Positions 26,990 to 34,483 of a stretch of DNA of 64,000 nucleotides are shown piece by piece; position 1 is the first letter of the stretch, and each line of letters begins with the position of its first letter. Both the position numbers and the translations under genes were made by a program. The notes beneath the pieces are model-generated. The model was not told where the DNA came from, did not search any database, and was given only the letters and a program-made list of their open reading frames with translations. Source of the DNA: Nanobdellota archaeon (GTDB taxonomy: Archaea > Nanobdellota > Nanobdellia > Pacearchaeales > GW2011-AR1); NCBI GenBank assembly GCA_024654505.1, contig JANLHN010000003.1, positions 4,314-68,313 on the forward strand, written 5' to 3'.

Positions 26990-27184
26990 GTTTGGTAATT
27001 GCTCGCATCCGCCTTGCGTCAGGATGCTCGCTTTGGGAAGTTTAGTAATGTTGTAAACTCTTTAACGAGTTGGTTGGATTATACTTTTTATTTCGCCTTC
27101 GGCGATTAGTGAATGTAAAACGGCTTTTTTTGGTTGAACAAGCATGTTAAGAGAATGAGGGTTACTTATGCGCGAAGCGCTTTT

Positions 27185-27370
27185 TCAAAGGTAGTATATC
27201 TTGGCCTTACCAGAATCTTTTGCTTTGATTTTTTCGAGGTCTACTAAACATCTTAGGTAACCGAGCAAAACAGCTCGGTTTATGTCGCCGACTTTGTCGG
27301 CGATTTCTTTTTGTGTTAGGGGGGCGCCCCCTGTTTTCAATGCGGCGATTATTTTTTTGTCTAATACCAT
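27185..27370 (-). CDS. small winged-helix transcriptional regulator
   Basis: A 61-aa wHTH (LTQKEIADKVGDINRAVLLGYLRCL). The TATA TTTAAATA and the palindrome ATAGTGCACTAT lie between the TATA and the ATG. Confidence 0.55.
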   Translation of the reverse strand: MVLDKKIIAALKTGGAPLTQKEIADKVGDINRAVLLGYLRCLVDLEKIKAKDSGKAKIYYL

Positions 27371-27377
27371 ACACTAC

Positions 27378-27389
27378 ATAGTGCACTAT
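27378..27389. promoter_or_regulatory. perfect palindrome ATAGTGCACTAT (candidate autoregulatory operator)
   Basis: Read directly. The related palindrome TATAGTGTACTATA lies at 17685-17698. Confidence 0.45.
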
Positions 27390-27468
27390 AGTATTTAAAT
27401 TTTTTGTTTGGTCAAAGAGGGCAAGCGCATCGAAGTCATCGCTTCCCTCTTCTGCCTTTGGTCTTGTC

Positions 27469-27606
27469 CTATGGATTGTCGTCCCAGAACTTTTCCTGCT
27501 CGTCCCGGAACTTTTTGTGATCCCTTTTGTCTACTTCTCGAAGGAGAAAGAAGATGACGATTACGGCGACCAAAAAACAAACTATGATTATTCCTACGTG
27601 ATACAT
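27469..27606 (-). CDS. small TM protein (45 aa, MYHVGIIIVCFLVAVIVIFFLL..)
   Basis: ATG with an AAGGAAAG RBS, immediately 3' of the GC hairpin repeat. Confidence 0.4.
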   Translation of the reverse strand: MYHVGIIIVCFLVAVIVIFFLLREVDKRDHKKFRDEQEKFWDDNP

Positions 27607-27632
27607 AATCTTTCCTTTTCTTGTGAAGGGTG

Positions 27633-27673
27633 CGGCCCCGCCCCCGCAGTTGTCTTTGGGGGGCGGGGCTTGG
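27633..27673. repeat. GC hairpin element CGGCCCCGCCCCCGCAGTTGTCTTTGGGGGGCGGGGCTTGG, copy 1
   Basis: An almost identical copy lies at 28992-29033. Each copy sits 3' of a minus-strand gene and 5' of a tiny TM-peptide ORF. Confidence 0.6.
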
Positions 27674-27689
27674 TTGCGTCGACGACGAA

Positions 27690-33470: not shown

Positions 33471-33475
33471 GTCTA

Positions 33476-33615
33476 ACTTCTTTCCGCTCTTGCGAGCATG
33501 AGCCTACTCTCTTCCCACGAGATTACACAATGAGTGTTTTCTCGCTTGACTTCTTGCACCATGCAAGTTCCTGGGCTTAGAACCAGGCGCACCTTGGAAG
33601 GTGTGGTGGGTTAGA
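33476..33615. repeat. 140-nt 5' leader/promoter module, copy 1 (upstream of the MVP gene)
   Basis: Near-identical (2-3 mismatches) to 34343-34483. It contains the inverted repeat TTGCA-CCA-TGCAA. Confidence 0.7.
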
Positions 33616-33616
33616 G

Positions 33617-33686
33617 CGCTCTTCGTCCCTCCGGCCGAAGAGCTTGGTTGTAGAAATGATGGGCCCTATTTGTATAGCACCGGGCC
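33617..33686. repeat. 72-nt intergenic module, copy B
   Basis: See 30431-30502. Confidence 0.6.
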
Positions 33687-33710
33687 CATTGGTGCACGCC
33701 GTCGCCGAAG

Positions 33711-34337
33711 CTACGGGTTCTTGACTGGGGCGGCGATACCTGCGGGTGTCTTCCCGGGAGGGGTGGCCGCGGGTGCCTGACCGACTCCGGCAGGGGTCCG
33801 CTGGATGGGCTGGGCTCCCTTTGGGTCCTCTCCGCGGGGGTCCACCTTCTCCATCTTGGCGAACTCGAAGTCCGTCGTCCAGATGGTCATGTTGTCGTCT
33901 CCTCGCCGGAGGAACTTGGCGTCCTTCGTCGTGAACTCCAGCCACAGCGGACAGCCGTTCCGGAACAGGTTGCACAGGTTCTCTGCGGTGGCCTTGTCGA
34001 CTTGCTGTTCGCAGCGGATTCGCTGCTCGCTCGCGTCGTAGGCCTCGAACCAGATGTTGACTGGGAGTTCCTTGCCCTTGATGATCCGGATGGCTCCCAC
34101 GTTCCATCCGTCGAGGGTCCACTCTCCCGAGGTGGGGAGGGAGGAAGTGTAGACGACCGGGGCCGGCCTGGGGGCGGGCACCGGAGCCGGAACAACAGGG
34201 GTCGGGGCCGGAACGACTGTCAGGGTCGTGGTCGGCCGGTCGAGAGCGTGGCGGTCGCAGTTCTGGTGGCGATCGGTCATGCACCCGGTGAGGGTCAGGC
34301 TGGCGATGAGGGCCAGTGCGAACAGGATGCGCTTCAC
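33711..34337 (-). CDS. lipoprotein (signal peptide with lipobox LTLTGC)
   Basis: MKRILFALALIASLTLTGC, a Pro/Ala-rich linker and a GTG start. Confidence 0.55.
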   Translation of the reverse strand: MKRILFALALIASLTLTGCMTDRHQNCDRHALDRPTTTLTVVPAPTPVVPAPVPAPRPAPVVYTSSLPTSGEWTLDGWNVGAIRIIKGKELPVNIWFEAYDASEQRIRCEQQVDKATAENLCNLFRNGCPLWLEFTTKDAKFLRRGDDNMTIWTTDFEFAKMEKVDPRGEDPKGAQPIQRTPAGVGQAPAATPPGKTPAGIAAPVKNP

Positions 34338-34342
34338 GGGAT

Positions 34343-34483
34343 TCTTCCTTCCGCTCTTGCGAGCATGAGCTTACTCTCTTCCCACGAGATTACACAACGA
34401 GTGTTTTCTCGCTTGACTTCTTGCACCATGCAAGTTCCTGGGCTTAGAACCAGGCGCACCTTGGAAGGTGTGGTGGGTTAGAG
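34343..34483. repeat. 140-nt 5' leader/promoter module, copy 2 (upstream of the lipoprotein gene); ends exactly at the island/host boundary
   Basis: See 33476-33615. Confidence 0.7.

Follow-up and report, generated by a model that had tools for sequence, protein, structure and literature searches.

The stretch of archaeal DNA that we analyzed is a 64,000-nucleotide portion (hereafter the window, to which all coordinates refer unless a locus is named) of contig JANLHN010000003.1 of a Nanobdellota archaeon (assembly GCA_024654505.1, positions 4,314 to 68,313 of the forward strand). Its background is AT-rich, with a G+C content (GC) of 0.31–0.41 per kb from which only two patches depart. The subject of this report is the patch at 27406–34483, an island of GC-rich DNA recognized by its GC profile, its GC at third codon positions (GC3), and its dinucleotide distance from the host, and carrying among other genes a Major Vault Protein (MVP) homolog. 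An original prediction, made from the sequence alone, had proposed a foreign high-GC island here. The features of the island are as follows.

27406 to 34483, ~7.08 kb, all genes on the minus strand: foreign GC-rich island.
27469 to 27606, minus strand: micro open reading frame (ORF) for a 45-residue peptide with a single transmembrane (TM) segment (MYHVGIIIVCFLVAVIVIFFLL...), downstream of the hairpin at 27629–27683 and the last island gene.
27690 to 28781, minus strand: Cys-rich protein, 363 residues (DNA repeats, family scan, AlphaFold model).
28869 to 28964, minus strand: micro-ORF for a 31-residue single-TM peptide ((M)NYIGDIGILLFFGAGLWAILRVKKHPRTRR), downstream of the G/C-rich hairpin at 28989–29043.
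29053 to 30333, minus strand: M29-family aminopeptidase (PepS/AmpS type), 426 residues (Pfam PF02073).
30428 to 30519, minus strand: stem-loop module that follows the MVP gene (GGGCCC...GGGCTC plus GCTCTTCG...CGAAGAGC), with repeats of 97% and 82%.
30531 to 33470, minus strand: MVP homolog, 979 residues (Pfam, rat MVP match, AlphaFold model, Foldseek).
33477 to 33616, minus strand: 140-nt upstream module, copy 1, before the MVP-like gene, 98% identical to copy 2.
33711 to 34337, minus strand: putative bacterial-type lipoprotein, 208 residues (translation, GC3 0.84).
34344 to 34483, minus strand: 140-nt upstream module, copy 2, before the lipoprotein gene, with palindrome TTGCACCATGCAA and leader GGAAGGAAG.

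At 100-nt resolution the GC climbs at ~27600, runs at 0.55–0.74 inside the island, and is down to 0.30–0.42 no more than 100 nt past 34483, giving means of ~62% (0.62) for the island versus ~35% (0.35) for the host. GC3 is 0.80, 0.91, 0.86, and 0.84 for the four large island ORFs (27690–28781, 29053–30333, 30531–33470, and 33711–34337, respectively) and 0.16–0.49 for host ORFs of at least 100 residues across the 64 kb, the one exception being a non-coding-looking frame in the second GC-rich patch. Dinucleotide relative-abundance distances are 46 between the two halves of the island and 33–50 among host segments, as opposed to 199–231 between island and host. The compositional island is genuine, far beyond chance, and the predicted jump from AT-rich host to GC-rich DNA stands by GC, GC3, and dinucleotide signature, although the block is ~7.1 kb long and not the ~7.5 kb first proposed. 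Its left edge had been set at 26990, which we corrected to ~27406 since the DNA at 26990–27400 is host-like (GC 0.39–0.43) and contains a host-native gene for a winged helix-turn-helix (wHTH) regulator; the wHTH promoter matches that of a relative (locus L011) up to ...AAATTTTTTG, and the terminal hairpin of the island starts directly after. On the right, the edge at 34483 is as abrupt as was claimed, with GC falling within ~100 nt, but it does not lie midway through a repeated module, as the 140-nt upstream module is complete there and has 34483 as its outer end. The encoded proteins had been described as markedly acidic, which was not supported (D+E of 0.14–0.19 in the island versus a typical 0.12–0.19 in the host), and we rejected the suggestion of a halophilic donor on amino-acid composition, the island proteins having 5–7% lysine and no acidic/low-lysine signature.

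The assignment of 30531–33470 as an MVP homolog, also part of the original prediction, was upheld by Pfam (MVP_shoulder PF11978, 1.9e-22, residues 586–696; Vault_3 PF17795, 2.9e-11), by an alignment to residues 458–800 of rat MVP (phmmer, 7e-17), and by Foldseek. An AlphaFold (AF2) model made from 32 homologs had a mean predicted local distance difference test score (pLDDT) of 63.6 and contained beta repeats, a shoulder, and a coiled coil of ~220 residues; it was beta-rich at residues 16–422 and 523–560, with low pLDDT in several repeats, and the cap-helix region had predicted helices at 697–799 and 808–921. The best Foldseek matches to this model were full-length vault cages (2e-25) and the murine MVP repeats R1–R7 (3e-10), followed by prohibitin, flotillin, and HflK/C. 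By profile and model the three hallmarks of MVP (SPFH-like shoulder, vault-repeat array, and cap-helix coiled coil) are present, arranged as N-terminal beta-sandwich repeats, an acidic/Gly-rich insert (~residues 168–234), the SPFH-like shoulder, and a long cap-helix coiled coil. No vault RNA was found in an Rfam scan of the window, beyond which no search was aimed at vault-RNA, TEP1, or PARP4 homologs.

MVP homologs are already known from prokaryotes (Daly et al. 2013, PMC3762200; Sokolskyi 2019, bioRxiv 10.1101/872010; for Asgard MVPs, PMC12962969), and the island protein has the same full-length architecture of repeats, shoulder, and cap helix. It differs from these in its location in a DPANN archaeon, in having only 35–44% identity to any member, and in its length, since known prokaryotic MVPs have ~820–850 residues and the island protein has 979, with the acidic/Gly-rich insert. 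Its bacterial family gave >1,700 matches, and the closest homologs with names (the 35–44% identical matches) came from Myxococcota, Planctomycetota, Riflebacteria, Gemmatimonadota, Schekmanbacteria, Anaerolineae, and Microscillaceae. Separately, we noted that 40 IMG/VR contigs labelled viral (L098–L137; 5–500 kb, 33–67% GC) encode full-length MVP homologs, and many of these contigs are probably bacterial chromosomal segments or proviruses.

The remaining island genes had been described in the original prediction as encoding an M29 aminopeptidase, a lipoprotein with a lipobox, an acidic Cys8 tandem-repeat protein, and two tiny TM peptides. The aminopeptidase matched its Pfam profile over the full length (PF02073, 3.3e-115, positions 1–406 of 406), and its best homologs were ≤46% identical and found in bacteria (the named ones being Vulcanimicrobiota, Bdellovibrionales, and Bacillota) or in unnamed contigs of 56–61% GC. 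The lipobox was confirmed by direct reading of the translation: the N-terminus (MKRILFALALIASLTLTGC) consists of a signal peptide, MKR-ILFALALIASLT-LTGC, in which L-T-G-C fits the lipobox [LVI][ASTVI][GAS]C, followed by a Pro/Ala-rich linker; this protein had no match in Pfam, NCBIfam, PADLOC, or the PDB. Both TM peptides were confirmed (27469–27606 and 28869–28964), each micro-ORF being preceded by one of the two G/C-rich hairpins (27629–27683 and 28989–29043), which are 82% identical; the 45-residue micro-ORF has a lower GC (0.42) and a GC3 of 0.57. NCBIfam and PADLOC searches with the island proteins gave nothing meaningful.

Of the fourth description, the Cys8 repeats stood and the marked acidity did not. 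The Cys-rich protein has an N-terminal helical domain and then tandem units of ~50 residues with eight Cys each (DNA repeat periods of 150 and 306 nt). The family is rare: an exhaustive HMMER scan of 1.84 billion representatives identified 59 relatives, which have in common the N-terminal domain and 21 invariant Cys. Its AlphaFold model was confident (pLDDT 88.7), but the matches of the model in the PDB, to tandem fingers of the PHD/PZP, ZZ, and RING-like kinds, were all weak (3e-3 at best); the units resemble cross-brace zinc fingers (PHD/RING/ZZ-like). In a low-GC archaeal metagenome-assembled genome (MAG; L094/L095) the homolog comes after a pair of PspC genes, an NfeD-like gene, and the gene of a small protein whose N-terminus looks SPFH-like by eye, without Pfam support; in a bacterium of 57% GC (L097) a 601-residue Band_7/flotillin gene precedes it by two genes. 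The family thus stands beside an SPFH-clan gene in three of three contexts, the island included, which for so small a sample is suggestive of a functional pairing with SPFH-type scaffolds, a pairing previously unremarked.

The six genes are co-oriented and, by transcription, run lipoprotein, MVP-like, M29, micro-TM, Cys-rich, micro-TM. Between them lie repeats of the island's own: besides the two 140-nt modules, the downstream stem-loop module has a paralogous copy at 33615–33704, after the lipoprotein gene. The TTGCA-N3-TGCAA palindrome occurs only twice in the window, both times within these 140-nt modules, and the island leaders are purine-rich and Shine-Dalgarno (SD)-like (GGAAGGAAG, GGAGGAAGG, AAAGGAAAG), 5–10 nt before the start codon, with no TATA boxes ahead of the island genes. 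Host genes, on the other hand, seldom have an SD sequence; their TTTAWA-type boxes lie 25–35 nt upstream of the ATG, which is the spacing of leaderless transcripts. The palindrome counts and leaders agree with the original prediction that TTGCA-N3-TGCAA repeats and GGAGG-type ribosome-binding sites set the island apart from the boxes of the host. Scans of the island for sigma-70 promoters and intrinsic terminators gave numbers at or below the shuffle expectation.

The host genes on either side, and the DNA between them and the island, are as follows.

26768 to 26989, plus strand: tm73, left flanking host gene, a 73-residue membrane protein (homologs in relatives 36–51% identical).
27185 to 27370, minus strand: wHTH regulator, 61 residues, host-native and outside the island (weak Pfam wHTH match; conserved at the locus).
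34484 to 34884, minus strand: AT-rich spacer from the island to mem239, with a host-type TATA box, a 67-residue ORF, and a folding segment, all pointing into the island.
34885 to 35604, minus strand: mem239, right flanking host gene, a 239-residue membrane protein (GC3 0.32; its homologs adjoin the tm73 homolog in relatives).

The host is a Pacearchaeota/Nanoarchaeota (DPANN) archaeon: the nearest relatives of its FEN1, the gene next to tm73, are 72–78% identical, and several of those with names are Pacearchaeota or Nanoarchaeota (a scan of genome contigs with FEN1 gave two distant relatives only). The order PolB(-), small ORF(+), FEN1(+), tm73(+) is kept in relatives, and we found tm73 homologs in L007–L013, L021, L025, L033, and L035. 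In five lineages (L008, L009/L010, L025, L033, and L035) the tm73 homolog abuts or overlaps a convergent mem239 homolog, while in the window the two genes are parted by the wHTH gene, the island, and the 400-nt spacer; the adjacency in relatives therefore represents an empty site at the position of the island. No island gene was present in the FEN1 loci that we fetched from relatives (L001–L002 and L007–L090). The original prediction had included the wHTH gene in the island, at its left edge. Its promoter does bear a palindrome (CATAGTGCACTATA, 27377–27390) together with a TATA box, but the gene itself does not belong to the island, as island-free relatives have homologs of it in this very place (identities of 84% in L007, for a partial match, 62% in L014, and 51% in L011), and a JGI relative of L007 has a 61-residue WHD gene there.

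What follows the wHTH gene varies. In the JGI relative the cargo is an S26 peptidase, a 62-residue gene, and a 548-residue gene, and then a mem239-like gene, and in L012 the locus holds a toxin-antitoxin pair of the RelE type. We observed that L012 carries RHH-antitoxin/RelE-like toxin pairs downstream of FEN1 at 11061–11589 and 17336–17838, behind TATAGTCTACTATA-type palindromes; since these operators resemble the wHTH palindrome, the motif type is common in promoters of the lineage. Between FEN1 and the wHTH gene of L014 (1440–1720) there is a degraded frame like the IS200/IS605-type Y1 transposase TnpA, a remnant which indicates that mobile DNA has visited the hot spot in a relative.

Two relatives have GC-rich, ORF-poor segments directly upstream of the wHTH homolog, which is the position of the island: L014 at 2100–3800 (1.7 kb, GC 0.50–0.59) and L011 at 11550–12250 (~0.6 kb, GC 0.48–0.50). 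Each opens with a palindrome, an A/T box, and a strong hairpin, and the dinucleotide distance of the L014 patch is 119 to the island and 184 to its own host; these segments could be decayed foreign DNA or lineage-specific RNAs. The second GC-rich patch of the window (17700–19000, ~1.3 kb, GC 0.52–0.62) has no ORF of >110 residues and no codon periodicity, its dinucleotide signature is nearer the host than the island, and the first 800 nt of its minus strand have fold z-scores of -4 to -5, with no Rfam match even at E≤1. It is preceded by the palindrome TATAGTGTACTATA (17686–17699) and an A-rich box, and the wHTH promoter (at 27377) has the sole other near-copy of this palindrome within the window; the patch is a candidate large structured non-coding RNA, possibly under wHTH control. 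We considered whether the three patches (17.7–19.0 kb, L014 2.1–3.8 kb, and L011) were pieces from the donor of the island or homologous RNAs, and rejected this as blastn, nhmmer, and tblastx showed no similarity among them or to the island. Rfam and Pfam searches of the three gave no matches, and they do not have the strong GC3 periodicity of the island genes, a weak signal being seen only at ~3250–3700 in L014.

From these observations we consider it highly probable that the island is a genuine, very recent multi-gene transfer from a bacterium to a DPANN archaeon, very recent because its composition shows no amelioration. The original prediction of a recent acquisition from a high-GC donor is in line with the unameliorated foreign composition, the bacterial best homologs, and the empty site, and the check that it proposed, a BLASTP-type search with the island ORFs, found the best named MVP and M29 homologs to be bacterial at ≤46% identity. 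Entries of the MAGs themselves aside, 5.8 billion clusters held no protein with >46% identity to either the MVP-like or the M29 protein, and with bacterial best homologs at no more than 46% identity the donor would be an unsampled high-GC bacterium. The loci of MVP (L003–L006) and M29 (L091–L093) homologs that we read have 56–68% GC, and neither these nor the 40 IMG/VR loci (44 MVP loci in total) show synteny with the island. As to mechanism, ~7.1 kb of bacterial DNA would have been inserted in a variable intergenic hot spot between the convergent genes tm73 and mem239, at a point just upstream of the host wHTH gene and by a route that does not look integrase-mediated. The block would have been a single co-oriented gene string with its genes parted by the donor's own repeated modules, and these repeated modules argue for its arrival in a single piece, out of a single genome. 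A bacterial host of the archaeon may have been the donor.

Several points weigh against a transfer of this kind. No donor above 46% identity was present in the collections searched, and the donor lineage and the direction of transfer are suggested by composition and distant homology. The M29, Cys-rich, and lipoprotein genes were not found as MVP neighbors in any of the 44 other MVP loci, and the whole gene string is thus not a conserved operon; the conserved-operon candidate was rejected for this lack of synteny in the MVP and M29 contexts alike. The Cys-rich homolog in a low-GC archaeal MAG means that not all island families are exclusively bacterial. The island has neither integrase nor tRNA, target-site duplication, nor terminal repeat, and the support for its junctions comes from assembled contigs and protein accessions. 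The lipobox protein would probably not be lipidated by a DPANN cell. Finally, the island lacks archaeal promoters of its own and has stem-loops between its genes.

A broader account would take the island as a fresh physical trace of an archaeon that lives on a high-GC bacterium, take the wHTH-adjacent site as a preferred landing pad where GC-rich foreign DNA has been captured time and again in this lineage, and have the vault-like module, with its Cys-rich partner and the peptidase, expressed by read-through from a host promoter. It draws on the differing inserts at this position in the window, L014, L011, and the JGI relative, and we regard it, taken with all its parts, as doubtful.

We also weighed whether the island is an integrated archaeal mobile element (a provirus, a plasmid, or something like an integrative and conjugative element) that has kept its own high GC and uses the wHTH protein as regulator. 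In its favor, the insert lies at a hot spot beside a small wHTH regulator with a palindromic operator, relatives have different cargo or GC-rich ORF-poor DNA (L014, L011) following the wHTH gene, and 40 IMG/VR contigs encode MVP homologs. However, those contigs (5–500 kb) carry none of the other island genes, a wHTH scan of IMG/VR was negative, and the wHTH gene is near-host in composition and conserved where the island is missing. The island has no integrase, replication, capsid, or terminase gene; PHROG matches were only marginal (E 0.001–0.01, to families of unknown function), there were no PADLOC matches, and its DNA has no phage similarity and a single plasmid match of 2% (137 nt inside the M29 gene). 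Its lipobox, SD leaders, and lack of TATA boxes are bacterial signals and not archaeal-viral ones. The original prediction had itself noted that no integrase or tRNA target was visible, and our scans agreed: Pfam found no integrase or recombinase domain in the island ORFs, there is no tRNA near the island (the only one in the window is at 61456), and no flanking direct, terminal, or att repeats and no target-site duplication were found at the island. With these findings and the lack of phage, plasmid, or defense-system similarity, the mobile-element origin that the prediction also entertained was not supported, and we judge it improbable.

The other alternative it raised was an assembly or binning chimera, i.e., a co-occurring high-GC bacterial fragment misjoined into the archaeal contig. 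MAG contigs sometimes hold chimeric joins, and a chimera would fit a composition that is wholly unameliorated, a right edge that is sharp to the nucleotide, the missing mobility genes and att sites, and a donor that is otherwise unsampled. An internal 7-kb insert requires two false joins, however, and exact-sequence look-ups showed that tm73, wHTH, Cys-rich, M29, MVP, lipoprotein, mem236, and further flanking proteins each have two NCBI accessions, from two MAGs: "Nanoarchaeota archaeon" NUV37, with a contig of 369,652 bp (that of the window), and "archaeon" NUV97, with a contig of 85,288 bp. The accession numbers along the locus run oppositely in the two, and their host proteins differ slightly (2 of 800 residues in PolB and 1 of 283 in the 283-residue membrane protein), while the island proteins are identical and both junctions are spanned in both contigs. 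In addition, the flanks return to exact synteny with relatives, the place of the insert is one that varies among relatives, and no common k-mer or repeat was seen at the junctions. Because the same insert and both its junctions are present in two independent assemblies of close strains, we consider a chimera very unlikely.

The possibility that the genes are native to the archaeon and owe their high GC to function, such as high expression or RNA structure, is effectively refuted: AT-rich genomes do hold GC-rich native segments, such as the ORF-less 17.7–19.0 kb patch with its dinucleotide signature closer to the host, but a GC3 of 0.8–0.9 with normal GC2 is a signature of mutation and codon usage and not of RNA structure, the genes are missing from the syntenic site in all relatives examined, they have no close archaeal homologs, and their translation signals are unlike those of the host.

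Returning to a transfer from a bacterium, the question is whether the archaeon could express the island genes. Archaeal termination relies on oligo-T tracts, and the sense (minus-strand) transcript from 34483 to 27577 contains no T5+ run, compared with ~2.1 per kb in the host (counted as A5+ on the plus strand); with no T5+ run over ~7 kb, the entire island could be read through by archaeal RNA polymerase. Transcription, if any, would start in the right-hand spacer, at its TATA promoter of the host type, and continue through the island, where the SD-like leaders would allow internal translation initiation on the read-through transcript. Judged from the DNA alone, such read-through expression is plausible, and the island genes could equally be silent passengers.

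The TATA box of the spacer (TTTATAAATA, ~34776–34786) is ~28 nt upstream of an ATG at 34748, a geometry like that of the host leaderless genes. This ATG begins an unannotated ORF (34545–34748) for a very basic protein of 67 residues that would be leaderless. We also observed, overlapping this ORF, a minus-strand segment of ~245 nt (34505–34765) with a perfect 13-bp closing stem (AAGTAGTAACATA/TATGTTACTACTT) and a fold z-score of -5.6, which could be a small non-coding RNA, an element like a miniature inverted-repeat transposable element, or a small protein gene. It belongs to no Rfam family, and the AAGTAGTAACATA motif flanking the spacer RNA showed no significant enrichment.

If expressed, the MVP-like and Cys-rich proteins may work jointly in a scaffold module of the SPFH type, of which the peptidase might be a partner or client. 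The nearest known parallels are the SPFH-partner operons (stomatin/flotillin with NfeD; HflK/C with FtsH), as the island too has an SPFH-clan cage-forming protein near a peptidase and small membrane proteins, and the Cys-rich family likewise adjoins Band_7/NfeD genes elsewhere. Unlike these operons, the island has no homolog of NfeD (no match in any island ORF) or FtsH, and M29 differs from FtsH in being a soluble aminopeptidase that is not linked to MVP homologs in the 44 other loci, such that its coupling to the scaffold is one we only infer.

Compared with classical genomic islands, the block resembles them in its unusual composition, in being a discrete insertion where the locus varies, in its absence from relatives, and in its accessory cargo; it departs from classical integrative elements (tRNA-linked, with integrase and direct repeats) in having no integrase, tRNA target, flanking repeats, or transfer or replication genes. 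By the usual marks of a genomic island, then, it has the composition, the absence at the syntenic site, and the outside affinity, and it does not have the hallmarks of mobility. Castelle et al. (2021, PMC8204110) described bacterial genes in both Pacearchaeota and Woesearchaeota and considered bacteria as possible hosts of these archaea; there, Pacearchaeota are proposed to be episymbionts of bacteria and to carry bacterial genes. As in the interdomain transfers into DPANN reported there and by Dombrowski et al. (2020, PMC7414124), bacterial-type genes are here flanked on both sides by archaeal genes, and the host lineage is likewise one proposed to associate with bacteria. The transfers in these reports are ameliorated single genes or pathways, whereas the present case is a contiguous multi-gene block that keeps donor composition (GC3 ~0.86 vs 0.30), SD leaders, and intergenic repeats, and its MVP-like/M29/Cys-repeat cargo is not among the bacterial systems covered in the passages of PMC8204110 that we read. 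Transfer into DPANN is a known kind of event, of which the island is an unusually fresh, contiguous, and unameliorated example.

The value of the locus is in part that it would be an unusually clean case of very recent bacterium-to-archaeon transfer, backed by two assemblies and an empty site. To our knowledge the hosts of Pacearchaeota are unknown, attachment of some of them to bacteria having only been proposed. The donor codon usage and private repeats (the 140-nt and stem-loop modules) make a specific probe for the donor, and as the donor may be a physical partner of the archaeon, the island could help to identify that bacterial partner. For vaults, an MVP gene that reached its archaeal location by transfer is uninformative on an archaeal origin, and a full-length vault-protein homolog in a DPANN genome is a caution against taking archaeal MVP genes as vertical ancestry.

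Two other features of the window lie beyond mem239. At 36628–38547 there are two tandem paralogous membrane-protein genes (283 and 278 residues), of which relatives hold three or four in a row, and their promoter regions are duplicated as well (36719–37018/37733–38032, 75%; 37380–37548/38379–38547, 83%). At 40015–43146, on the minus strand, a 1043-residue protein, probably a calcium-binding one of the cell surface, is encoded with at least nine DNA repeat copies (period ~100–110 nt) that specify units rich in Cys and Asp (…QCQDGIDNDGDG…-like).

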